Assembly (NCBI GenBank): GCA_023379805.1
Contig: JAMCPI010000016.1
Coordinates: 8,514 to 72,513, forward strand
Length of the DNA: 64,000 nt
Direction of reading: 5' to 3'
Origin: Nitrososphaerota archaeon
GTDB lineage: Archaea; Thermoproteota; Nitrososphaeria; Nitrososphaerales; JACPRH01
This document shows, in pieces, positions 1 to 51,004 of the stretch. Made by a program: the position numbers and the translations under genes. The first letter of the stretch is position 1. Each line of letters starts with the position of its first letter. Under the pieces are notes generated by a model. That model did no database searches and had not been told where the DNA came from. It saw only the letters and a program-made list of their open reading frames with translations.

Positions 1-1099
1 TTCGGCCGCTGTGCGAAGAAAAGTCGAAGCGTTTCACTTGGGATTTGACTTTCCGCGGCTTGCCGTTGATCAATGTTATTCCTTTCTCAAGAAGCGTTCG
101 ACCGGGGGTTCCGGGGACCTGGAACGATACTATACATATCGCGTTTTTAGGTCCACGGGCGATCTCGTTGTTGTAGAAGACGGCTGAACCACCTACAAGC
201 ATCCCTGCTGGAGCAATTATTACGCCCGGCTGCTTCACTACGCGTCTACGTTGGCTCCAGCTTGTCATCATATCGACGCTTCCTATGCTCTTCTTGTATA
301 AATCGGGATCTTTCAGGAATTCTTGGTGTCTCAGCAGCACATCGTTTGTCTTAAGGGCCATTCCATCCATTGCAACAGGGTAGGGAAAGTTCTTCTTTCT
401 GAGAACACATGCCATTTCCTGAGCTCTTCCTACAGCGAATGCTGGGACAAGGGCGGTTCCTCCCTGCTCAACAATCTCTTTCAAGAATGCAACGAACTCA
501 TCCTCAACCTTTTCACGCGGCGGATGATCAGCGGTCGCGTAGGTGCTCTCCGTGATGATTATGTCAGTTTCGTCCCAATCAGTGTCAGCTCCGCGCTGGA
601 GATTGGTTTCGTCGATCTTGAAATCACCTGTGTAAAGCACGCTCTTCTTGCCGTTATCGAGTCGAACAATCGAAGAGCCGGGTATGTGGCCCGCGTCAAG
701 GAATTTGACGGTGAACTCACCCATCTGAGACTCGTCTCCGGTCTTGAAGCCCTGCGCTCTCTTCATCATGTTCATTAGATCGAGATACTCAAAGGGGAGG
801 TAGAACCCTGATAGCTGAATAAAGTCCTCGATTAATAGGCGACTTAGCTCAAGAGTTAGGCTCGTGGAGTGCATCTCCACCCCGTTTCCGAGAAAGAATA
901 GCGGCGTAGCACCTGAATGATCAAGGTGTGAATGTGTGAGGACTATCCCATCTACATCCTTCGGTTTCACGTGAATTGGAAACGCAGGTTCTCTTCCAAC
1001 GAGCACCCCGAAGTCCAAAAGTACACGCGTTTTTTCTCCTTTAACCAGAAAAGCTGACCTGCCGACCTGTTGTGCGGCACCTAGAACAGAAACTTCCAT
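1..1099 (-). CDS. beta-CASP / metallo-beta-lactamase-fold RNA-processing nuclease (aCPSF2 or RNase J-like); 3' end runs off the window
   Basis: Not in the ORF track because there is no stop inside the window. My reverse-strand translation from ATG (complement of 1097-1099) reads MEVSVLGAAQQVGRSAFLVKGEKTRVLLDFG...DGIVLTHSHLDHSGATP (HxHxDH motif)...FLDAGHIPGSS...ITESTYA...ALVPAFAVGRAQE. It stays open to position 1. The listed + ORF 323..778 is its antisense shadow. Confidence 0.8.
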   Translation of the reverse strand, partial: MEVSVLGAAQQVGRSAFLVKGEKTRVLLDFGVLVGREPAFPIHVKPKDVDGIVLTHSHLDHSGATPLFFLGNGVEMHSTSLTLELSRLLIEDFIQLSGFYLPFEYLDLMNMMKRAQGFKTGDESQMGEFTVKFLDAGHIPGSSIVRLDNGKKSVLYTGDFKIDETNLQRGADTDWDETDIIITESTYATADHPPREKVEDEFVAFLKEIVEQGGTALVPAFAVGRAQEMACVLRKKNFPYPVAMDGMALKTNDVLLRHQEFLKDPDLYKKSIGSVDMMTSWSQRRRVVKQPGVIIAPAGMLVGGSAVFYNNEIARGPKNAICIVSFQVPGTPGRTLLEKGITLINGKPRKVKSQVKRFDFSSHSGR

Positions 1100-39000: not shown

Positions 39001-39003
39001 AGA

Positions 39004-39138
39004 AACCAAAACAATCTTTTGAGTTTCGAAAATGTGGCGCTAATAACAATGGATACCTGAAAATGTATCGGGTATCCACCCTCATTTTTTCTTCTAAATT
39101 CCCACACCCATCAGTTTAAAGTTCATGGGCCAACCAGG
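39004..39138 (+). repeat. non-coding repeat family, copy 2
   Basis: aaccaaaacaatcttttgagtttcgaaaatgtggcgctaataac..., then hairpin 39051-39060/39068-39077 (ggatacctga/tcgggtatcc), a T-run, then ...cagtttaaagttcatgggccaac. Confidence 0.8.
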
Positions 39139-39485: not shown

Positions 39486-41762
39486 TTACTTCTTCCGCAT
39501 CGCCAGTACTGCTGCGCCAATGATTGCGATGACAGCTATTCCGACTGCCGCATAAGTTACTTCTGAGGGTAGTCCTGTTGTCTGTGTTACTTGTGATGTT
39601 ACTGTTGAGGTTTGAGCTGGTTGTGTTGAGGTGATTGTGGTTGCTTTTGTGGCAGTGGTTACGCTTGTTGTCGCTGACGTGGTTGTTACTGTGGTTGTTG
39701 CGGTGGTGCTTGAAGTGGCTGTAGTCGTAGAGGTTGCAGTGGTGGTTGTGACTAATGTGGAGACCGATGTTGTAGTTACTGTTGAGGTGATTGCTTGGCC
39801 TGCCGGTTTGTCGGATAGTCCTATGGCCATTAGTGTGCCAGGGACTGTAGGTTGTCCACCTAGTCCGTATCTTGGGTCTCCTGCCGCTATTGCTTGTGGC
39901 CCGGTCATTAGGAATATTTTTGAGTCTCCTGCTGAGTCTTTGCCTATAGTTGTTCCGATTACTACTGGTGCACCGATATTCATTTCTCTGAGCATCTTAC
40001 CGTTGTCTTTGTCGAGGAACCTTACTTTGCCGTCTGTGAAGCCTGAGAAGACCATTCCTCCTGTGACGACGATAGCTGCTCTCTGATGACTGTAGCTGTA
40101 GAACCATGACCATTTCACTTTCCCTGTAGCTATGTCTCTAGCGACGATTGTCGAGTTCGCGATTGGATAGTTTCTTACAGTGAAGAGATTCCCGCCCTGA
40201 ATATAGGGACTCTCCAGCAGTACAGTTCTCTGTAGAGCATCTTCGTAGAGGATTATTGCCTGCCCGTCAGGATCGTAGGACATGTCTGTTGCGAAGATAC
40301 CATTGGTCCAAGCTGGATACACTTCAGCCGGTAATGTGTGGTGTTCTCCCTTTTCACCCGGTTTGGTGGCGGGCCAGCTTATCCAGTTCCATTCTCTCAT
40401 GTCGTGGTAGCTCTTAGGATCGGGCATGTATGTCCTGATGCCGTCGGGCGGAGGTTTAGCTGCAGCTGCGCCTACCTGTCCCCTAGCAACTTGGTCTGGT
40501 ATTACATCTACCTTGTACTTTGGCTTACCTGAAGCTGCATCCATTACGTAGAAGATGCCTTCCTTGCAGCCCTTCACGTAGACTTTGCCTAATGCCTTGC
40601 TGTCGATTAGCATGCCGCTCCAGTTACAGTCATAGTCATACGGATCATGTGGGAATGGCTGTAGCCACCAGACTCGTTTGCCCTGATTCAGGTCAATGGC
40701 CATTATAGTGCTACCGTAGAGTCTTGGTCCAGGTGCGAGAGACATGTTTGAGTATGGTCCTTGGTTGCCAGTGCTTGTGTATAGTATACCTGTATCCTCA
40801 TCTACTACTGGTTGGCCCCAGTTGGCTGTTACTCCAGCCCATTTGCTTATTGGCTCTCCTGGTAATCCCCAGTCCCATTCGAGTCCCTTCTGGTTCACAG
40901 CTGCTACTTCGCTGCACGGAACATCTCTGAAGTAGCCTATGCTGCATTCTTGCAGTGCCCAGTCTTTTACTGGAGTGTCATACGGTGGAGATTCGAAGAC
41001 TCGCCAGAGGACGTTGTAAGGTGGATCCATGCTGATGCCCATTGTGACGTGTCGGGCATCGGGTGCGGTGAGTGTGCTGTGCATCGTGCCGGGTAAGATG
41101 TAGATGAACATATGGCCTTTTTCATAAGTCATCAGGTTCGCTGAGTTAGCTAGACCCATGTTCCCCATGTATTGATACAGGTTACCAGGTATGTTTGCGC
41201 AGAGGTCGTTAACGCGGAACTTCTCCTTTCCGTTATTAGCGTCGATGCCGTAGAAGTCGCATGCAATACCATAATCCAGTATTGCATCTCCGCCTGCCCA
41301 GTATCTGATGCCGTGTGAATGAATAGGCATTGCTACTTTCACGGGTAGCCGCTTCTTCACTGCCTCTATGTCGATGGTGTAGTCATAGACCCATTGCTGT
41401 TTACCGGTCTTTGCGTCTACCGCGTATGTTCTCTTGTAATTAGTCATTACGTAGACTTTGCCGTTATGGACGATTGGTGGGGTGGACGATCCTTCTCCCG
41501 GGTTAGCTGCCTGCATACCTGCAGGTGCTAGTGACTTGCCTCCGATAGGGAAGATCCACTTTACTTCTAGATTGTTGACGTTGTCCTTGTTGATCTGTGT
41601 CTGTGGGCTGTAGTTCTGAGCCCATGAGTTACCGTTGACATTCTGCCAGTCTATGCCATCATTTGCTAGTGGTGCTGCGAATGCTAGTGTTGGTGTGAAT
41701 GTGCTGAATGCCAGTATTACAAGTATTATACAGTTAGTTATCCAATATTTGCTTGATAACAT
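39486..41762 (-). CDS. secreted PQQ-repeat beta-propeller (quinoprotein-dehydrogenase-like) protein with a Thr-rich stalk and C-terminal TM anchor
   Basis: 758 aa. Signal-like N-terminus, repeated A-x-D-x-x-T/S-G-K-x-x-W units (AVDAKTGKQQW, VMDAASGKPKY, ARDIATGKVKW, FLDKDNGKML), about 90 aa of T/S/A/V low complexity, then GLPSEVTYAAVGIAVIAIIGAAVLAMRKK. Confidence 0.8.
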   Translation of the reverse strand: MLSSKYWITNCIILVILAFSTFTPTLAFAAPLANDGIDWQNVNGNSWAQNYSPQTQINKDNVNNLEVKWIFPIGGKSLAPAGMQAANPGEGSSTPPIVHNGKVYVMTNYKRTYAVDAKTGKQQWVYDYTIDIEAVKKRLPVKVAMPIHSHGIRYWAGGDAILDYGIACDFYGIDANNGKEKFRVNDLCANIPGNLYQYMGNMGLANSANLMTYEKGHMFIYILPGTMHSTLTAPDARHVTMGISMDPPYNVLWRVFESPPYDTPVKDWALQECSIGYFRDVPCSEVAAVNQKGLEWDWGLPGEPISKWAGVTANWGQPVVDEDTGILYTSTGNQGPYSNMSLAPGPRLYGSTIMAIDLNQGKRVWWLQPFPHDPYDYDCNWSGMLIDSKALGKVYVKGCKEGIFYVMDAASGKPKYKVDVIPDQVARGQVGAAAAKPPPDGIRTYMPDPKSYHDMREWNWISWPATKPGEKGEHHTLPAEVYPAWTNGIFATDMSYDPDGQAIILYEDALQRTVLLESPYIQGGNLFTVRNYPIANSTIVARDIATGKVKWSWFYSYSHQRAAIVVTGGMVFSGFTDGKVRFLDKDNGKMLREMNIGAPVVIGTTIGKDSAGDSKIFLMTGPQAIAAGDPRYGLGGQPTVPGTLMAIGLSDKPAGQAITSTVTTTSVSTLVTTTTATSTTTATSSTTATTTVTTTSATTSVTTATKATTITSTQPAQTSTVTSQVTQTTGLPSEVTYAAVGIAVIAIIGAAVLAMRKK

Positions 41763-41953: not shown

Positions 41954-43750
41954 CTACTTCTTTCGCATTACTAGTACTGCTGCTGCGGCAATAGCTATTA
42001 CAGCTACTCCGATTGCTGCGTAGGTTACTTCTGAGGGTAGTCCTGATGTTTCGGTTACTGATGAGACTACTGTGGTTGTTTGAGTTTGTGCCGGTTGTGT
42101 TGATGTTACTGTGGTGGTGGCTGTGGTTGCGGATGTGGTCGTCAGTACGGATGTGGCGATACTTGTGCTTGTCTGGGTGGTTGTCATAGTTGTTGTCTTT
42201 GCTTGGGAGCTTGCTCGTAGACCTATGCCAACTAACGCTCCACCTGGACTGGCAGTGCTTGGTTTTGCACCTGCATTGACAGCTACGACTATCATTGAGT
42301 TACCGGCGCTATCTTTGCCTACTGAAGGTCCTGTGGGTATTTGGGAGCCGAGATTGAGCTTGTATATCTGTTTGCCTGTGTCTTTATCGAGGAAGGCCAG
42401 GTTTCCATCGTAAGATACTATGACCATGCCGCCTGTGACTGGTCTTTGTGTTCCGCTCATGCGTCGCTCGGATCCGGGGAATGGGCCCCAGGTCCATTTG
42501 ACTTTACCAGTGAGGGCGTCTTGTGCGTAGAATGTGCCGTTTTCTGATGCGCCTGTTTTAACTATCATCCATGAGGCTTTTCCTTGAGATGAGGCTAATT
42601 CGAGATCCCAGGTTTTCATGTATTCTGGTGTTAGGTACGCAAAGGAGTAGATTGTGCCTGCCCCGTCGGTTGATGATTCTCCGACCATGCCGCTGTGACC
42701 TAAAGGTAGGAGGACATTATTTTTGTCACATTTTGCACAGTTTCTTCCCACATCGGTCATCTCCATTTTTCCTGCTCCTGCCCACGGTAGAGTAAGCATC
42801 TCTTTGAAGCCTTCCCAGTTACCTGTGACGTGGTTGTACGTTGGTAAGCGATCTTTGTCGAGAACTGGTGCGGGATCGTAAATTATGTTTGCTCTGAACT
42901 TTTCACCGTATAGCGAAGTGATTGGGTCAAATCTCCTCAAAGGTTTGCCTGTGGCAGCATCGATGTAATTCAGAATTCCGTCTTTGCACGCTTTTACTAG
43001 AGCCTTTCCAGTGGTTCCTAGTCCTGGAACTTCTATAAGCATGGGGGAGTAGAATCCACAGTCCATGTCGTATGGGTCGTGCGGATATTCTGAGACCCAC
43101 CACTTCATTTTACCCTTACTCAAGTCGAAGGCTACTAGGCTGCTGCCGTATAGATTTGGTCCTGGCCTAGAAGTGAGGTTTGAGTAGGGACTCTGGTTGC
43201 CGGTCGCTATGTACATTGTATCGGTGTCCTCGTCAATTATTGGCATACCCCAAGTTGCACTTACACCGTTGAGTTTGTGCGGAGGTTGTCCAGGTACTGC
43301 TTGCCAGTCGTATTCAAGCAGGGATTTGTCGCGCTGCGCCACTGTTTGACAAGGAGTGGTCACGAAGTAGCCAATATCACAGTTTTCTAGCGCCCAATCC
43401 TTGGTAGGCTTGTCCTGAGGTGGTTGTAAGAATACTCTCCAGACTATTTGCTTTGTATCCATATCCATGCCGCCAATCCAGTTTCTGAATGAGGAAAAGT
43501 CACCCTGTAGGCTGCCGTATAGACCCACGATGTACTGATTCCCTTTATCCCAAGTAGCTATTTCGGCTGTACCGATGCTTCCTATTAGTGCGTTAGGTGC
43601 CTGTTTGTAGATACTGCCAGGAACATTCAAACAGAGATCAGTGATCCTGAAATTCTCTTTACCTGTATCGGCGTTTATTGAGTAGAAGTCGCAAGCTATT
43701 CCACCTATCAGTATAGCGTTTCCTTTTTCCCAATATCGGAAGGGTTCTGT
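41954..43750 (-). pseudogene. 5'-truncated paralog of the PQQ-repeat beta-propeller protein
   Basis: The frame is open upstream of the track's TTG start. My translation reads *TEPFRYWEKGNAILIGGIACDFYSINADTGKENFRITDLCLNVPG..., which aligns with residues ~152 onward of the 758-aa neighbour (IRYWAGGDAILDYGIACDFYGIDANNGKEKFRVNDLCANIPG). The signal peptide and about 150 aa are missing. The in-frame stop (43751-43753) lies inside the transposon end. Confidence 0.7.
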
Positions 43751-43767
43751 CTAGTTAAGGTACATAG
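43743..43767 (+). repeat. left terminal inverted repeat of the transposon
   Basis: GGTTCTGTCTAGTTAAGGTACATAG. Imperfect pairing extends about 9 nt further outward. Confidence 0.85.
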
Positions 43768-43775
43768 TATAAATA
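43768..43775 (+). promoter_or_regulatory. TATA-box-like element for the S8 peptidase operon
   Basis: tataaata is centred about 32 nt upstream of the TTG start at 43803. This fits a (near-)leaderless archaeal transcript. Confidence 0.4.
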
Positions 43776-43802
43776 TGCGAGCATTTACAAAGCCTGTCAA
43801 GA

Positions 43803-45974
43803 TTGGGCATTAAATCCTCTAAACAAGATGATTTCATAATCGTATCTCCGCATCCAATTTCAGTTACAAGAGAGATAGTTGGAGGAGGCGCGCCCATACC
43901 TGATGATGAAAAGAAGAAAATCAGGGATGAGATTGATGGCAGGCACCTTGACAAAAAGATACATTCGACATCATCCGCGCTCAGGGATAAGGAACTTCAT
44001 GATGAAAGCAAAATCTATTTTATAGCTGAAACCACCCCAAAAGCCACTGCCTCGCAAATAGACTCTGCACTAACGACGCTCAAAGCTGAAGTTCACTCAC
44101 ATCTTGGTAAAGAACACAAGTTGCTACTGGTATCTGCGCCACAAATTACGCTTGACCACTACATCTTTAAGGGTCTGCCACTAGCAGTTAAGAAACCGTT
44201 TGTTGATTTTCGGCCTCTCGAGTTAAAGGAGCAAATCAGCGAAGATATTCTGGATGATAGCAATTGGACTAATGAAGCTAAACCTTTGGTAATACACCTA
44301 ATCCCTAACGTAGATACGCGCCGAACCGAGCGTTACTTTAAGGAATTGGCACAGTATTTTGAAACCAATAAGGTGCCGATACTCTGGAAAACACCGGTTG
44401 AGTACGGCGCACTAATAGTAGTAATGAATGGTAAAGTAGCTAAGAATCTACTAGAGCAGTCAAATTACATCTTTAAGATTCATCGCGTGCCTCGCGGTAT
44501 CCTCACGACTATACCTCGTGACGGTTCTGTGAAAATACCACGCATTAAAGCCAAGTCTTCATCTGTTGAATTAGCGCCCACTTCCTCTGCTAATGCATTA
44601 CCTGTTGTATGCGTGGCAGATAGTGGTGTGGATATAATACCAGCTCTTTCAGGCCATATTGTTGGACGAAAGAAATACCCTAATTTTGGTAGTCCAGATG
44701 ATGGCAGAGATCCAAGAGGCCATGGAACGCCAATTGCATGTCTTGTAGTTCATGGCGAATGTAATGGTTCTCCTAATGGGAACCCCAGAGCCAGAATAAT
44801 ATCGCATAAGATCTATTCGGATCAGAACAGGGACGATGCCCTTCAAGGGATGTTTGAAGCGATAAGAGAGAACTCATCGGAATCAAAAATATTCGTTTCG
44901 TCAGTAAACTTTGAAAACGCGGATCATGCTTTGCCAACTTTTGCTCTACTGGATAAAATAATTCAAGAGCGTAACATCTGTTTTGTGTCCAGTGCAGGCA
45001 ATATAGACGATGAATTGAAGGAGGTAATAGACCGATACCCAACATATATTCAGAATTACCATGTTCTTCACCCAGCTCAGAATGCACATGTCATAGGGGT
45101 AGGTTCGATTGCGAGAAAGGCGAATGCGGATTCGGTAGCGCGGCGTGGCGAGCTTTCGCCTTTTACTAGATGTGGCAAGACTCTTAAGAAGCTATACGAT
45201 GTTTGCAAGCCAGATATCGCAGAACACGGTGGTAACATCTGCCACAACTTTCACACAAGCGAGATAGGCGTATCCTCATTCTGTAAAAATGGTGACCCAT
45301 CTGATGACTTTGCGGGTACAAGCTTTTCAGCACCGCTTATAGCTGGGCGACTAGCCGAGATTGTAGCTAAGTATGGGCACCGTATAAGAAATGCTGAGAC
45401 GTTCAAGGCAGTCCTATTCATGTTCTGCGATAATCGCAATCTCGCATGCTGTGGACATGGCACGCCTCAACATACTCTTGGAGCAGAACCCGATAGCGCT
45501 GTTTTCGTATCAGAAGGGAATATTCGCCTCTCAGACCTTACCATAAAGGGTTCAGAAACCGAATACTGGGATGAAATAACTATCGGCGTTCCCAAGGGCG
45601 TTAGGGAACTCGAAATATGCTTGGTTCATTCCGATGATTATAACGGAATGAGCGAACCAAGCTTGGACACGTATCTTGAAGTCGAAGCTTGGAAAACTGG
45701 ACGAGAAAACTCTCCAGTTGATCCCACCTACGCATCCCCGCGAAAATCGTACGTTAGGTTTCTAAGCTGGAATTTCAAGACCCATAGTATGGAAGGTCAA
45801 TGGAGGCTTAAGATCATCCCACAAACAACAGAAATCATGAACCATCGCGAGAGAAAAGGCATTACAGTGAGGTATGGATGCGTAATCAAGCTGACATCCC
45901 GTAGCGCGATAACTACCACAACTTTGACAAATCTTGCTCAGCAACAAATGCGGAGATGGGGCTTAACCAGATGA
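43803..45974 (+). CDS. cytoplasmic S8-family (subtilisin-like) serine peptidase with an unknown ~260-aa N-terminal region and a ~170-aa C-terminal domain
   Basis: 723 aa. Catalytic triad contexts VVCVADSGVD (Asp), PRGHGTPIA (His), FAGTSFSAPLIAG (Ser), and oxyanion SSAGNID. No signal peptide or TM. The segment before the catalytic domain (ILWKTPVEYGALIVVMNGKVAKNLLEQSNYIFKIHRVP) looks like a subtilase I9-type prodomain. TTG start. Confidence 0.85.
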   Translation: MGIKSSKQDDFIIVSPHPISVTREIVGGGAPIPDDEKKKIRDEIDGRHLDKKIHSTSSALRDKELHDESKIYFIAETTPKATASQIDSALTTLKAEVHSHLGKEHKLLLVSAPQITLDHYIFKGLPLAVKKPFVDFRPLELKEQISEDILDDSNWTNEAKPLVIHLIPNVDTRRTERYFKELAQYFETNKVPILWKTPVEYGALIVVMNGKVAKNLLEQSNYIFKIHRVPRGILTTIPRDGSVKIPRIKAKSSSVELAPTSSANALPVVCVADSGVDIIPALSGHIVGRKKYPNFGSPDDGRDPRGHGTPIACLVVHGECNGSPNGNPRARIISHKIYSDQNRDDALQGMFEAIRENSSESKIFVSSVNFENADHALPTFALLDKIIQERNICFVSSAGNIDDELKEVIDRYPTYIQNYHVLHPAQNAHVIGVGSIARKANADSVARRGELSPFTRCGKTLKKLYDVCKPDIAEHGGNICHNFHTSEIGVSSFCKNGDPSDDFAGTSFSAPLIAGRLAEIVAKYGHRIRNAETFKAVLFMFCDNRNLACCGHGTPQHTLGAEPDSAVFVSEGNIRLSDLTIKGSETEYWDEITIGVPKGVRELEICLVHSDDYNGMSEPSLDTYLEVEAWKTGRENSPVDPTYASPRKSYVRFLSWNFKTHSMEGQWRLKIIPQTTEIMNHRERKGITVRYGCVIKLTSRSAITTTTLTNLAQQQMRRWGLTR

Positions 45975-46594
45975 TTAATTCGAATGATGTTCGTCCTTCA
46001 ACCAAGGTAGTAGGCCAATTTGAAGAGATCATAATTGCTCAACTGGTAAATCATTTCACGTCTCTTGGGTATAGTGCTATCCCCCATGCTAGATTCAACA
46101 TCGCTTGGGGCAGTATTCTTTCAGATCTAGATGTTTTGCTGATAAAAGGTAACTCACTAACCGTTATAGAAGTCAAATCTAAACACGACAATATAGCGCG
46201 TGCAAGACGCCAGTTAAGGGGGATTGCTGATTACATAGATTATGCATATGTTGCAACAGACAAGATACTAAAGCGATGGGATGAGCCTAAAGTAGGATTG
46301 CTATTTGTCGATAAGAAAGGCGTTAAGTTAGTAGTGCATGCTAAGCAATTTACGAGCAGACCCTCTGCTAGGTCTCTTGTGGCTCTACAAAAGAAGTGCC
46401 TCCTTCGCTTCTTAGGTTATAGAAACTACAATTACATGCGGAAATTCAACATAGCCGAGCAGATTAGAGGCGCAGGAGAGGCGAAATCGTTACGCCAATG
46501 TTTGAGTGAAGTAGTGGTTTGTGGCCAGCGCTGTGATTTAGACTGCCCTGTTTGGAACTTTATTGCCCAGAACTCTCAGAAACCCCAGAGCTAG
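45956..46594 (+). CDS. PD-(D/E)xK (restriction-endonuclease/Hjc-like fold) nuclease-like protein
   Basis: 212 aa. FEEIIIAQL (helix with Glu), SDLDVLLI (Asp) and VIEVKSK (E-x-K) appear in the canonical order and spacing. It overlaps the S8 gene. An alternative in-frame ATG at 45971 gives an ATGA start/stop overlap. Confidence 0.6.
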   Translation: MGLNQMINSNDVRPSTKVVGQFEEIIIAQLVNHFTSLGYSAIPHARFNIAWGSILSDLDVLLIKGNSLTVIEVKSKHDNIARARRQLRGIADYIDYAYVATDKILKRWDEPKVGLLFVDKKGVKLVVHAKQFTSRPSARSLVALQKKCLLRFLGYRNYNYMRKFNIAEQIRGAGEAKSLRQCLSEVVVCGQRCDLDCPVWNFIAQNSQKPQS

Positions 46595-46895
46595 ATTTCT
46601 GAATCTTACCCCTAATTCGCCGCTCCCATTCGTCGTACCCAACTACGCCTTTCTCTTCCAGAAGCTCGACTAATGAGGTTAACATAGTGTCGTGCATCCG
46701 TACCTCTTGCTTAACTTGATCAGTCTCGCTTGCGATGCCCTCAACTTTGAAAGAGGGTAGAAGGATGCCCTTATCGGATAGGTGAGCAATTACGATGTTT
46801 CGGATAACTTCTGAATCGCCATCGCCTAGCGTTCCTTTCAGCTCGTCTATGACCTTCCAAACGCCTTCTGGAAGTGATACTAGTGCGCGCCTCAT
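46560..46895 (-). CDS. ribbon-helix-helix (CopG-like) protein
   Basis: I place the start at the internal ATG (MRRALVSLPEGVWKVIDELKGTLGDGDSEVIRNIVIAHL is an RHH pattern). That ATG overlaps the transposase TGA as ATGA (46892-46895). The 3' end overlaps the convergent nuclease-like gene by 35 nt. Confidence 0.55.
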   Translation of the reverse strand: MRRALVSLPEGVWKVIDELKGTLGDGDSEVIRNIVIAHLSDKGILLPSFKVEGIASETDQVKQEVRMHDTMLTSLVELLEEKGVVGYDEWERRIRGKIQKSSSGVSESSGQ

Positions 46896-47782
46896 GCTCT
46901 CACCACTAACTCCATAGCGTGTCCCGCTATCTTTTCTTGCTTTGTCTTTTCGGTTGTGGCTAGTCTTATCAGGTTCTTCCACCCTTTCACTTCTATGCCT
47001 GCCGCTTGAGCTGGCGTCATCTTTATGCTTTGGTGTTCGCGGCAGAAGTTATAGTGAGTGACCCAGCCATCTAAGAGAGCTTGAGCGGTTGCCTTGCTCT
47101 TTAATCCTCTCATCGGCTTTGTTCTATCCTTAAGTGATCCGTGTAACCTCTCTACTATGTTGTTTGTCTCTCTCGCACGTATGCCTACACGCTTGACTAG
47201 CTCAGGCTGACTAACCTTGTTTGGATTACCGAAGGCAAACCTAAAGGCGTCATCGTAGGTGTTTGAGCCGTCCACAAAGATTGCGTTTGGTTGCGGGTTG
47301 CATCCTTCCTTAATACGCTTGAATTGCTGATATGTTTCGGCTAGGCTTCTACTGTTTGACAGGTATGATGCGACTAGAAAGCGGGTTTCCTCATCGATTG
47401 CCTCCCAGAACCACCTATTCGAGCCGTCAATCTTTACTACGGTTTCATCGTGGTGGATTTTGCCTGATACGGTGGGTGTTAAGGTTCTTGCGTATTCAGC
47501 TGCTAATGCGCTGAACTTCTGAACCCATATCCAGATTGTTCCCTGATTTACTTCTTCTCCTAAGATGTCTCTTAGCTGTCTCTGAACTTTGCGAACCGAT
47601 AATCCTTCAAAGTATAGGTTCATCGCGGCAACCACGATATGCTGGTTAACTCTCATTCGTGGTAATTCGTTTCCATTGTCAACAAAGTGGTGTCCACATT
47701 CTTTGCATAGGTAGCGCTGAAGGTTGCCCTTCATACCGTGCTTAACCACATCTGCGCTTTGGCAGAATTTGCAGGTCGCCAT
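46892..47782 (-). CDS. IS6-family DDE transposase with an N-terminal zinc-ribbon
   Basis: 296 aa. CKFCQS...QRYLCKECGHHF (zinc ribbon). DDE blocks HHDETVVKIDG...WFWEAID, IFVDGSNTYDDAF, ETNNIVERLHGSLKDRTKPMRGLKS, matching the IS6/IS26-type pattern (from memory). Confidence 0.85.
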   Translation of the reverse strand: MATCKFCQSADVVKHGMKGNLQRYLCKECGHHFVDNGNELPRMRVNQHIVVAAMNLYFEGLSVRKVQRQLRDILGEEVNQGTIWIWVQKFSALAAEYARTLTPTVSGKIHHDETVVKIDGSNRWFWEAIDEETRFLVASYLSNSRSLAETYQQFKRIKEGCNPQPNAIFVDGSNTYDDAFRFAFGNPNKVSQPELVKRVGIRARETNNIVERLHGSLKDRTKPMRGLKSKATAQALLDGWVTHYNFCREHQSIKMTPAQAAGIEVKGWKNLIRLATTEKTKQEKIAGHAMELVVRA

Positions 47783-47960
47783 CTTCTTCCCCGTATATCA
47801 GTTATATATCACACTATATATGTATATCTAAAGTATATTAAAAACATATCAGTGTTGCCGTAGGTGAATGTTGGTTCATTGATACATGGAACGGGATTCT
47901 TGATTTGAGCATCAGTATGGTATCGCATTTTTATACCAGCTCCGTTAAGGTCGAATAAAA

Positions 47961-49043
47961 TTGAAGAATCAACGGTTACAACGATATTACAGTAAAGTGA
48001 ATCCGCACATCCAGCCTTACAAATTTAGCACGGTCATAATTTACTTCTTGCTCATAGCCAATTTAGTAGCGGCCACGTTATGGTTACTCAAGTCTAACAA
48101 TGCGGTTGTTTCGATTGCGCCAACCGCTATACTATATCTTGCAGAGGCAAATGGAGTCGCGTTTGCCTTCGTCTTCTCTATCGGCATATACGTGATGAGA
48201 AGGTCTGACGAGATAATATCAGAAAGAATGCCCTTATTCGGATACTACACGATTTGTTACATCATCCTTTTCGTGGCAAGCATAGTCATGCCAATAATCG
48301 CCTCAACAGTTACCGAACTAATCCCTTTGGCTATTTCTCTAAGCGTAGTTTCGCTAGCTCTAATTCCATTCACGTTTGACAAATTCAGGTACAGACTTTC
48401 TCCTAGCTCAATACTCGGGTTCGTGTACAAGAATGCTAAGGAAAAAATCGCTTTGGGCGACTTAGATGGAGCTTGGAGTTACGCTGTAGAGATGGATAGA
48501 ATTGCAAAGGTCATTCATAATGACAATGTTGATCAGTTTGCCAATACTCTCGCGTTAATGCTGGTTGTTATGAACGATGGGGAAGTCGCGCTTAAGGACA
48601 AAAACCAAAAGGTGACCTTTCGTGGTGAGAACCATCCTCACTATTGGATTGACGTTTTCAGATTAAGGTTAACTTGGATTGGTCAGGTGGTGGTAGATGA
48701 TTTTCTTGCTTTTGAGAGGGTCTGCATTGAGGTTGTGGCTAATAAAAACTTCAAAACTTACAGATTCGCTCGCACCGAATACAACATGTCTTTAGTGACA
48801 ATTTGGATGTTGTGCCATTTTGCATTCAAAAGAGGATACACCGAAAGCGCTGAAAAAGCTCTACGTCTCGCTATCCGTGAAAGCGTCGCATCCATGGCGC
48901 TCCCATCATTTGCATTAACCGTACCTGAAGACGAATTCTTAGAATCTGTTGATGGACTTATGTTTTCAAATCCAGATTTAACCCCGCAACTTGTAGCGCT
49001 GAAAACTGACTTCCTTGCACTCAAAGAAAAGAAACAAGGTTAG
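47961..49043 (+). CDS. hypothetical membrane protein (4-5 N-terminal TM segments plus a ~210-aa soluble helical domain)
   Basis: 360 aa. AT-rich codon usage like the rest of the transposon. No family recognised. Confidence 0.55.
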   Translation: MKNQRLQRYYSKVNPHIQPYKFSTVIIYFLLIANLVAATLWLLKSNNAVVSIAPTAILYLAEANGVAFAFVFSIGIYVMRRSDEIISERMPLFGYYTICYIILFVASIVMPIIASTVTELIPLAISLSVVSLALIPFTFDKFRYRLSPSSILGFVYKNAKEKIALGDLDGAWSYAVEMDRIAKVIHNDNVDQFANTLALMLVVMNDGEVALKDKNQKVTFRGENHPHYWIDVFRLRLTWIGQVVVDDFLAFERVCIEVVANKNFKTYRFARTEYNMSLVTIWMLCHFAFKRGYTESAEKALRLAIRESVASMALPSFALTVPEDEFLESVDGLMFSNPDLTPQLVALKTDFLALKEKKQG

Positions 49044-49055
49044 AACCATTACGAT

Positions 49056-49080
49056 CTATGTACCTTAACTAGACAGAACC
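49056..49080 (-). repeat. right terminal inverted repeat of the transposon
   Basis: ctatgtaccttaactagacagaacc is the reverse complement of 43743-43767. Confidence 0.85.
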
Positions 49081-49088
49081 GTTTCCGA

Positions 49089-49104
49089 AAACCAAAACAA
49101 TCTT
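49089..49104 (+). repeat. partial third copy of the start of the non-coding repeat family
   Basis: aaaccaaaacaatctt matches the first ~15 nt of copies 1 and 2 only. It lies directly after the transposon end. Confidence 0.4.
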
Positions 49105-49401: not shown

Positions 49402-50231
49402 AGCCGTCCACAACGCAAAACACAAGCGCAGCCAGCCTCAAACGGCTCCTACCTTATATCTCCTCACGTCCACCGCTTGCTTCGCAGATGCCGCTTTTTG
49501 TTACCTTGCTACGCCCCATCTTCGACGCTGCGCAAGGTCAACCCGCATCTTCTGCTCATCCGAAAGATTCTCCCCACAGGACTTGTGATACGGACTCAAC
49601 CTGTTATTCTGATCCAAACGGTAAAGAACATCTTCCCGCTTCACATCCTTGCATTGACACATACAGAGACCCACCGCACAAATCATAATTAAACCGATCG
49701 GCTCACCGCAGACTCCCAACTATACCCAAAACTAACCAATAATCTTCACCATTCTACCAATTACATTTTAATTATCAATCAACAACTTTCAGCTCCGAAC
49801 GACCCTTCCACCATTTCTAACATACTAACAAAAGGAATCACTGGGATGTAGTCTTGCAAGCCGGCGTCATGGATCCTTGCAACTCATGCAGCAGTAGGTA
49901 CTCTACTTGATGCAAATCCAGTAATGCAACAACTGGTTTTCTACAGGCATTTCTATCCTTTTTAAACCTCCCCCCTCGGCCTATGGCAGCACTGGTGCCG
50001 GCGCACCAAGGCGTACTAGTTTAACCAAAAAAACATTACAAGTAATCAACCGCCTAAGGTCGATAAAGATATCGTTAACTCCACCTATCAAAGCTCAAGA
50101 AATGCCGCATCTATCCTATCTGGAAGATATGATCAGCGAGCTGGACTCCTTTCCTGCCTGCATCGCACCAATATGCGCAAAGCAATCTAAGCGTCTAAAG
50201 TCAAAAAATGTATGTGGATTCAATGGGGCGA

Positions 50232-50948
50232 GATGTTGTTAGGATAAGCCGTTGAGTAGCACCCAGTTGTAGGTGGCTGTGAATGCTTCTAGGAATATCG
50301 TTATGGATTGTATAGTTGAGCGGTAGGGGAAGTTGTTGTAGAAGCGTTTTAGCTTGGCCTTGAGGATGCCGAACCATCTTTCGATGCGGTTCCTCATACC
50401 AAAGGTTTCATGCCTGAACTAACTGGTCTCATGCCTATACTCTAGGCCAAGCCTCTTGAATGCTTCCGGATACCAAGGCCCCTTATCCACTAGGAACAAA
50501 GGCTTGTTGGCGCAGTACTGGAGAACCTGTTTGAGGAAGAGTTCAGAGTCGAGAATGCTTCTAGCAAAGCTGCATCTGACTGCTAGGATTTCCTTAGAAT
50601 CAACATCTCGGGCTGCCCAGATGAATATCTGCTGCCCAACCAGCTTAGTCTTGGTCTCATCCACAGCAACCGCTCTTCGACTCTTCTTCTCAGGCTCAGG
50701 GAAAGCCTTCCTCAACGCAATGAACGCATCCCTAACACTGACGTAAGAGATGCTTCCACCCATCATCTCAGAAGCCTTTCGATACGACAGGCCTGCAAAG
50801 CACAACATAGCAGCCAATACCTTGCTCTCAGCAGGAACCTTATTCCTCTGAAACACACCTGACTCCCTAACCCTACTAACCACCACCTCAAGAGCACACA
50901 TAGGATTACAATACGCACAGAACCGTAAAACCCTATCCTAACAACATC
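50232..50948. mobile_element. IS6-like insertion sequence (717 bp) with 14-bp perfect TIRs and an 8-bp target-site duplication
   Basis: TIRs are gatgttgttaggat (50232-50245) and atcctaacaacatc (50935-50948). The flanking direct repeat is tggggcga (50224-50231 and 50949-50956). Confidence 0.8.
50239..50901 (-). pseudogene. IS6-family DDE transposase interrupted by an in-frame TAG inside a 21-nt tandem duplication
   Basis: The track ORF ends ...GLEYRHETS*. The same frame continues FRHETFGMRNRIERWFGILKAKLKRFYNNFPYRSTIQSITIFLEAFTATYNWVLLNGLS* (my translation). DDE blocks are AVDETKTKL, LFLVDKGPWY, NRIERWF. The duplicated tcatgcct lies at 50408 and 50429. Confidence 0.8.
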
Positions 50949-51004
50949 TGGGGCGATGCCGAAATGCTTTTCGGTAACCACCAATTATCTCATCGAGATG
51001 CGAT

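Follow-up and report, generated by a model that had tools for sequence, protein, structure and literature searches.

A 64,000-nucleotide stretch from a Nitrososphaerota archaeon (GCA_023379805.1, contig JAMCPI010000016.1, positions 8,514 to 72,513; hereafter the window, with positions counted from its first nucleotide) carries a mobile element of 5,338 bp at 43743-49080. Its two leading genes encode an S8-type subtilase (gene 1) and a PD-(D/E)xK-type protein (gene 2). A first-pass annotation of the bare sequence had proposed that the two form a transposon-borne protease-nuclease operon and a candidate defence system. The element holds five genes, namely the subtilase gene, the cII-like gene 2, a small ribbon-helix-helix (RHH)-like gene, an IS6-family transposase gene and a cargo gene (Table 1). 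The transposase and RHH-like genes converge from the reverse strand on the forward-strand pair.

Table 1. Coordinates of the element, its genes and its left flank (aa, amino acids; TM, transmembrane)
Feature	Position	Strand	Remarks
Truncated PQQ beta-propeller paralog	41954-43741	-	lacks first ~151 residues; cut exactly at IRL
Left terminal inverted repeat (IRL), GGTTCTGTCTAGTTAAGGTACATAG	43743-43767	.	25/25 identical to 49056-49080
TATA-like box TATAAATA	43768-43775	+	28 nt before S8 start codon
IetS-like S8 subtilase (gene 1), predicted cytoplasmic	43803-45974	+	723 aa; open reading frame (ORF), Pfam, PADLOC, NCBIfam, alignment, AlphaFold2 (AF2) model, hhalign
S8 N-terminal domain	aa 1-150
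S8 I9-like prodomain	aa ~160-235
S8 disordered linker	aa 240-260
S8 catalytic domain	aa ~265-545		D273, H307, N400, S507
S8 beta-sandwich, P-domain-like region	aa ~560-700
P4-cII/sce7726-like PD-(D/E)xK protein (gene 2)	45971-46594	+	207 aa (212 aa from 45956)
Gene 2 nuclease-core codons	46130-32; 46169-71; 46175-77		D59; E72; K74
Small conserved putative RHH protein	46560-46895	-	111 aa; weak support
IS6-family DDE transposase	46892-47782	-	296 aa; N-terminal zinc-ribbon
Variable-slot cargo gene	47961-49043	+	360 aa (348 aa in public calls); ~4 N-terminal TM segments
Right terminal inverted repeat (IRR)	49056-49080	.	pairs with IRL

The protease gene, its partner and their junction

The Asp/His/Ser triad and oxyanion Asn that MEROPS family S8 requires are present in gene 1 in canonical order. 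D273 (44619-21), H307 (44721-23), N400 (45000-02) and S507 (45321-23) are all invariant in an alignment of 31 homologs, which bears out the complete triad of the first-pass annotation, and Pfam Peptidase_S8 covers residues 267-540 (E 2.8e-24). The AF2 model (predicted local distance difference test score, pLDDT, 89) matches pro-Tk-SP, KP-43, EpiP, PCSK9, furin and kexin over 480-610 columns. These fold matches support an I9-type prodomain in the N-terminal region, with a predicted beta-alpha-beta-beta-alpha-beta layout, and a separate C-terminal domain, both of which had been suspected. The protein is also predicted to be cytoplasmic, again in agreement with the earlier reading. Its frame begins with TTG and opens just 10 codons earlier (43773), within the region of the TATA-like box and inverted repeat, and therefore leaves no room for a hidden signal peptide; the highest Kyte-Doolittle mean over 19 residues, 1.53, is too low for a predicted TM or signal segment, and the N-terminus is not hydrophobic; and the N-termini of the 31 homologs can be aligned from about residue 5. 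The TATA-like box adjoins IRL, just inside the transposon end as first described, and A/T boxes (TTTTAAAAG) occupy the equivalent position in related elements. The box may function as a promoter, which would imply a leaderless or short-leader S8 transcript.

Gene 2 is most likely translated from the ATG at 45971-73, which overlaps the S8 stop codon TGA (45972-74) in an ATGA junction. The overlap and the junction seen at first reading therefore stand, and the start at 45971 is favoured over that at 45956 by the alignment of homologous Met residues and by the deposited NCBI protein of 207 aa. Among 36 aligned homologs, E23, H44, D59, E72-V-K74-S75, D78, Q86 and D95 are invariant or nearly so, with D59, E72 and K74 invariant. 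The AF2 model (pLDDT 90) shows a PD-(D/E)xK core at aa ~20-130 and, after it, a helical C-terminal domain with C148 and a C189-x3-C193-x3-C197-P cluster (46520-46549). With an alpha-beta-beta-beta-alpha-beta core and a D...(D/E)xK motif, gene 2 is a predicted member of the PD-(D/E)xK superfamily. The best solved match to the model is the MmcB-like 3dnx (E 3e-5), followed by Hjc (E 9e-3); further Foldseek matches are AF1548, a splicing endonuclease (EndA), Can2 and Bax1, and MmcB-like proteins are the top matches among viral structure models. Weak Pfam MmcB-like matches were also obtained. These MmcB-like relatives suggest a DNA-lesion or DNA-structure-recognising activity in the family.

The first-pass annotation had placed gene 2 among restriction-endonuclease and Hjc-fold nucleases. 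The fold and the E23/D59/E72-x-K74 residues were upheld, and the closest relatives proved to be P4 cII, sce7726 and MmcB-like proteins instead of Hjc. Hjc and MmcB-like nucleases share the fold and the D...ExK active-site geometry with gene 2, whereas Hjc is a housekeeping protein of ~120-140 aa that lacks the C-terminal Cys-rich domain. An identification of gene 2 (207 aa with an extra domain) as an Hjc resolvase was rejected, as its best relatives are cII and MmcB-like proteins and Pfam Hjc gave E values of only 0.04-0.09 in homologs, under the gathering score, and no match to the window protein.

Conservation of the pair and its IS6-type transposon

The two genes are found together wherever the family S8 protein is complete. 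When the S8 alignment was used to scan GTDB species genomes and JGI metagenomes, 59 loci were obtained, 50 of which hold a full-length family S8 protein, and a gene-2 homolog is its immediate same-strand neighbour in all 50 as well as in the window. The synteny expected of a functional pair is thus present in every related locus. Gene 2 lies downstream in 49 of these loci and in the window, and the distance from the S8 stop to its start is at most 20 nt, or the genes overlap, in 43 of the 49. The order is reversed in the most divergent locus, L052 (2761-5499), in which the cII-like gene precedes S8 and a gene resembling a serine recombinase follows. The pairwise identities of the two proteins correlate (r=0.95). 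The S8 protein and gene 2 therefore constitute a conserved, co-evolving and translationally coupled protease/nuclease-fold pair with intact catalytic residues.

The recorded hosts are Thaumarchaeota/Nitrososphaeria, Bathyarchaeia and other Thermoproteota, and the pair is also present in the Nitrosarchaeum limnium assembly GCA_000241145.2. It occurs on one IMG/VR predicted viral contig, the remaining viral-contig matches being distant prophage IetS-like genes, and a tblastn search of plasmids with S8 returned nothing beyond distant bacterial S8/IteS proteins. The family is rare: the protein search gave 76 S8 clusters, and in 1.84 billion proteins the gene-2 profile reached only 64 representative clusters at E<=1e-10. 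One high-GC archaeal lineage (L060 8001-8582, L061 8001-8714 and L062 5396-6109) has solo homologs of gene 2 that are 36-39% identical and contain Gly/Ala-rich inserts.

The surrounding element belongs to the IS6 family. Its transposase scores 147.6 bits against NCBIfam transpos_IS6 (cutoff 125) and matches Pfam DDE_Tnp_IS240 (3.5e-21). The inverted repeats (IRs) start with GGTTCTGTC in the window and with G(A/G)(C/T)ACTGTT in relatives, thus showing the GG tip and cTGTt motif described for IS6 (PMC7986276). In 15 loci an ortholog of the transposase gene lies on the opposite strand, 274-381 nt past gene 2. Homologous IRs of ~24 bp bound nine further complete elements (L002/L030, L012, L021, L023, L025, L026, L028, L029 and L033), which have the same layout as the window copy; complete elements span 4.2-7.4 kb. 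Eight of these nine are flanked by perfect target-site duplications at differing insertion sites (8 bp in L012, 9 bp in the other seven), and the whole multi-gene unit therefore transposes. L012 is a minimal element of S8, cII-like, RHH-like and transposase genes and nothing else. In all 10 complete elements the pair sits just inside IRL with its ORFs intact. The GC content of the window element is 43.9%, compared with 48.8% in the rest of the window, and is the lowest among all 5.3-kb windows. The transposon-borne, AT-rich setting of the first-pass annotation is well supported by these results.

The elements are IS6/IS26-like in their transposase, repeat motifs and short target duplications. 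They do not have the compact single-ORF form: they span 4.2-7.4 kb, contain 4-6 genes and mostly show duplications of 9 bp. According to a 2021 review, IS6 members measure 0.7-0.9 kb (rarely up to 1.7 kb), contain one ORF and produce 8-bp duplications, and ISDsp3, with a single passenger gene, is the only member with such cargo (PMC7986276).

No target duplication was found at the window copy or at L025. A tblastn search with the intact PQQ paralog (39486-41762, -) aligns the neighbouring truncated copy from residue 152 and stops at 43741. The cut paralog and the missing duplication indicate an insertion followed by IS-mediated adjacent deletion or recombination. Both paralogs, which are 38% identical, carry a C-terminal TM anchor in addition to Thr/Ser-rich C-terminal stalks. 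At 39003-39018 and 49089-49104 the window has exact copies of a 16-nt direct repeat (AAACCAAAACAATCTT), 10 kb apart and the second of them 9 nt beyond IRR; they may be a trace of the recombination by which the target duplication was lost. A second copy of the transposase protein was not found in public assemblies of this organism, in which it occurs once and in the same context. A second, small IS-like unit at 50231-50949, bounded by perfect 16-bp IRs (50231-50246 / 50934-50949), contains a 160-aa fragment (50419-50901, -) with weak similarity to IS6-like transposases (transposase HMM, hidden Markov model, E 5e-7).

The RHH-like gene is conserved in about 30 loci. Three of 12 members of its family match RHH_1 (best E 0.002), and the match to CopG in the PDB has E~1; searches of the PDB gave spurious leucine-rich-repeat matches and no passing domain with the profile and nothing with the single sequence. 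Its ATG overlaps the transposase stop codon (ATGA), so that it is coupled to the transposase and not to the S8/gene-2 pair, and its last 35 nt are shared with the convergent gene 2. The overlap with the transposase gene, together with the absence of the RHH-like gene from basal S8/gene-2 clades, weakens its candidacy as the antitoxin of the pair. In the L002-L033 group its counterpart is consistently split into an N-terminal RHH-like ORF of ~67 aa and a separate C-terminal ORF; split forms lie between gene 2 and the transposase in L002, L003, L021, L023, L025-L030, L033, L034 and L046.

A second cargo position, with exchangeable content and often occupied by restriction-modification (R-M) genes, lies between transposase and IRR. 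L002, L023, L028, L029 and L033 have in this place a large DNA methyltransferase, type IIG-like enzymes or a type I-like HsdM/HsdS pair; L021 has a ParA-like ATPase, L025 and L026 have other genes, and the window has a 4-TM protein. The window protein of 360 aa has no Pfam, NCBIfam or PADLOC family match, and its C-terminal half, after ~4 TM helices, is soluble. Because the same slot holds R-M systems in related elements, it may be an uncharacterised membrane-type defence or abortive-infection (Abi) protein.

Relatives in bacterial conflict systems and history of the pair

Gene 1 is distantly related to bacterial IetS. The PADLOC IetS model matches the S8 protein at 9e-39 over residues 140-538, i.e., beyond the catalytic domain, and hhalign against six bacterial IetS-like proteins gives 99.8% probability (E 5e-29, ~400 columns) with a shared KPDxxEHGGN motif. 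Homology extends from the end of the prodomain through the catalytic domain to the start of the C-terminal domain. In both systems the protease is cytoplasmic (by prediction in gene 1), is borne on mobile DNA and belongs to a two-gene operon. The archaeal protein is only ~22% identical to IetS, and its partner is a downstream PD-(D/E)xK protein, whereas in all of the bacterial IetS-like loci IetA (AAA+) is located directly upstream. An IetA HMM built from six bacterial loci found no matches among the ORFs of the 50 archaeal loci and the window. The suggestion of an IetS-like protease that lacks its ATPase was supported. IetS is reportedly a toxin and IetA its antitoxin, stabilising pTiC58 (a finding ascribed to Yamamoto et al., 2009), and IetAS is said to be among the anti-phage systems of Gao et al., 2020. 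The two proteins are cited as a toxin-antitoxin system of Agrobacterium (PMC8160871).

Gene 2 leads to a different bacterial system, Gop-beta-cII. An hhalign comparison with the cII/sce7726 family gives 99.3% probability (E 2.6e-20) over residues 21-188, so gene 2 is a distant relative that is homologous to cII over nearly its full length. The weaker matches to the gene-2 profile are bona fide sce7726 proteins, which match the PADLOC 'cll' model and carry PF26915 Phage_P4_cII. Gene 2 itself gave no match to the PADLOC 'cll' model, and its PF26915 label is only faint; the cII link was confirmed through NCBIfam, PADLOC and hhalign. The P4 locus is likewise borne on a mobile element and is toxin-antitoxin-like and anti-phage. 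Gene 2 differs from cII in its extra C-terminal Cys cluster, and identity is ~20%. An HMM of beta (PF14350) found nothing in the archaeal loci, where Gop was not searched for, and the neighbours of gene 2 within the element are the S8, RHH-like and transposase genes. The gop-beta-cII locus of P4 makes E. coli resistant to lambda and P1, and a toxin-antitoxin-like or abortive mode of action is presumed (PMC9122126); it acts as an abortive-infection locus that is triggered by a phage accessory gene.

In two Vibrionaceae loci (L067 6001-8872 and L068 6001-8849) the cII-family gene stands beside beta and a CapP-like M78 peptidase. A peptidase therefore accompanies the cII nuclease family in bacteria too, on the evidence of these two loci only. 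If the archaeal pair is indeed a conflict module, the replacement of IetA by a cII-type nuclease in archaea and the peptidase beside cII in bacteria would together suggest a general functional link between proteolysis and cII nucleases. In both loci cII is convergent to beta, the M78 metallopeptidase and a protein of ~210-225 aa. L067 lies in a P2/P4-like prophage region, and the arrangement resembles PD-Lambda-2 components. The M78 peptidase does not match the PADLOC 'gop' model and was not equated with Gop.

The pair is older than its capture by the transposon. In an approximate neighbour-joining tree rooted on bacterial IetS-like sequences, the archaeal S8 proteins branch as a clade apart from the bacterial ones. 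The basal S8 loci have neither RHH-like gene nor transposase, and the RHH-containing loci form one derived group that encloses two subclades with transposase and IRs, one including the window and the other being the L002-L033 group, which includes metagenome-assembled genomes named Bathyarchaeia. The transposase-less loci L011, L013, L032 and L039 keep an IR or a transposase remnant. A single terminal repeat stands beside the S8, cII-like and RHH-like genes in L039 (2884-2907), L013 (11255-11279) and L011 (7934-7958), and such copies may be non-autonomous or decaying. The simplest history is a single capture of an autonomous S8/cII-like pair by an IS6 element that carried, or then gained, the RHH-like gene, followed by repeated loss of the transposase. 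The transposases of L028 and L002 are 86% identical whereas their S8 proteins are only 50% identical, and another comparison gave 91% versus 49%. Thus, the pair either diverges fast or is swapped between elements; both patterns are typical of conflict genes.

The neighbourhoods of the pair vary. A complete type I R-M system lies directly upstream of it in L011, and an AriA/LmuB-like ATPase downstream in L043. Near other loci we noted apparent integrases, a serine recombinase, an IS5-type transposase, ParB and a capsid protein, all judged from reading the sequences. A HamB-like (Hachiman-type) SF2 helicase of ~705-727 aa abuts S8 on its upstream side, as part of the operon, in L017 (3998-6112) and L041 (495-2678) and is decayed in L005 (4884-5973). 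The L017 and L041 helicases are 40% identical and their loci fall in two different S8 clades, which makes a three-gene variant of helicase, protease and nuclease.

A possible conflict module and its alternatives

We consider it slightly on the probable side that the two conserved genes make up a conflict module of the addiction or abortive-infection type, which an IS6-family unit transposon here bears as fixed cargo. A toxin or abortive-infection role of the pair, and with it a defence function, is inferred from the conservation and coupling of the two genes, their IetS- and cII-like nature, the mobile and defence-related genes nearby, the fast divergence of the pair and the low GC content of the element. 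The protease would be made as a latent cytoplasmic zymogen that its partner, its own prodomain-like N-terminal region or both keep inactive. DNA would be bound or cut by the cII-like protein, which would fill the regulatory or sensing place of IetA, as sensor, regulator or co-effector. A cue such as viral invasion, DNA damage or element loss might free the protease through autoprocessing in the linker (aa 240-260). With the protease as executioner, proteolysis and DNA cleavage would then arrest or kill the cell, which would shield the population from viruses and make the transposon hard to lose. Any particular order of these events is much less probable than the conflict module as such.

Some observations weigh against this interpretation. 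Neither protein attains the curated cutoff of a known family: the S8 protein scores 97.5 bits on NCBIfam IteS, for which the cutoff is 900, and gene 2 scores 39.5 bits (E 5e-10) on sce7726_fam, for which it is 70. Moreover, the solo gene-2 homologs occur, with no S8 gene, in conserved synteny with the genes for ribosomal protein S26e, CDP-alcohol phosphatidyltransferase and arginase. Because these copies sit in housekeeping synteny without S8, the nuclease family can work alone and possibly has an S8-independent, repair-type role as well.

The pair could alternatively serve transposition, with the nuclease acting TnsA-like on the second strand or resolving IS6 cointegrates and the protease regulating the transposase or the RHH-like protein. 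Its fixed place inside IRL, with intact ORFs in every complete element, and the relation of the gene-2 fold to Hjc-type junction resolvases would fit such a role. IS6 cointegrates need resolution (PMC7986276), yet the elements are simple insertions with clean duplications. We nevertheless regard an accessory role as unlikely. The pair occurs without transposase or IRs in the basal clades and at many other loci, persists after loss of the transposase (L011, L013), and has a history partly incongruent with that of the transposase, as seen for S8. In addition, gene 2 is coupled to the protease and the RHH-like gene to the transposase, and the closest relatives of both proteins come from defence or toxin-antitoxin systems, not from transposons. 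It also seems improbable that the transposon trapped by chance a pair devoted to cellular maintenance, in which an MmcB-like DNA-repair nuclease works alongside regulated intracellular proteolysis. The top PDB match (3dnx), the weak Pfam MmcB-like matches and the synteny of the solo homologs all speak for such a pair, but the S8-linked form is rare and patchy, as the small numbers of gene-2 and S8 clusters show (64 and 76), diverges quickly and is found in variable mobile or defence contexts with no conserved synteny.

Anti-defence genes are common on mobile elements, and both transposons and one predicted viral contig bear the pair. The protease might accordingly degrade host immune proteins while the nuclease helps the element or virus to establish itself. 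We judge such counter-defence cargo to be quite improbable, since the homologous IetAS and Gop-beta-cII are toxin or defence modules and the adjacent cargo is of the defence kind (R-M) and not of the anti-defence kind. The resemblance of the catalytic domain and beta-sandwich to the secreted KP-43 and Tk-SP would be explained by an ordinary secreted nutritional subtilase beside an unrelated gene. This reading has a negligible probability and is refuted by the absent signal peptide, for which there is no room, by the N-terminal alignment from about residue 5 and by the coupling of gene 2 in every related locus. As found, the protease is not a secreted nutritional enzyme, gene 2 is not an ordinary Hjc and the two genes are co-localised in all related loci, and on each of these points the first-pass proposal held.

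The reading of the locus as a conflict module leads to a broader proposal, which we advance tentatively, as a little short of probable. The elements would represent a new archaeal family of IS6-derived unit transposons whose core is a protease-nuclease immune or addiction system, with a cII-like DNA-sensing nuclease, in place of an ATPase, in control of an IetS-like protease toxin and with a second slot that shuttles R-M and other defence genes among Bathyarchaeia and Nitrososphaeria. In bacteria, Tn3-family elements carry toxin-antitoxin genes, and Tn7-like elements with defence cargo are described (PMC8649781). As in these transposons, a unit transposon here combines a stabilising or defence module with exchangeable defence cargo; unlike the Tn7-like and Tn3-family elements, the present ones have another transposase family, archaeal hosts and a module of protease and nuclease.

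PADLOC v2 has no model for an S8 plus cII-like composition, and neither the pair nor archaeal IS6 cargo unit transposons were found described in the literature, including two 2026 surveys; the coverage was incomplete and an earlier description is possible. The expectation of a system of undescribed composition has thus held so far. A 2019 survey of thaumarchaeal mobile elements stated that passenger-carrying composite transposons were so far undetected in archaea. What appears to be new is the combination of an IetS-type protease with another partner, and the enlargement of an IS6 element into a cargo transposon.

These archaeal cargo elements are intact, have moved recently, as their clean target duplications attest, and carry exchangeable R-M cargo; if our interpretation is correct, they would offer natural vehicles and promoters for the genetics of Nitrososphaeria and Bathyarchaeia. 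The protease would be a cytoplasmic zymogen with a trigger that can be searched for. The pair would also link two poorly understood bacterial systems, IetAS and Gop-beta-cII, and could help to explain both. To our knowledge, few archaeal defence systems are known beyond CRISPR and R-M, and the pair would add to them an archaea-specific, protease-based conflict module.

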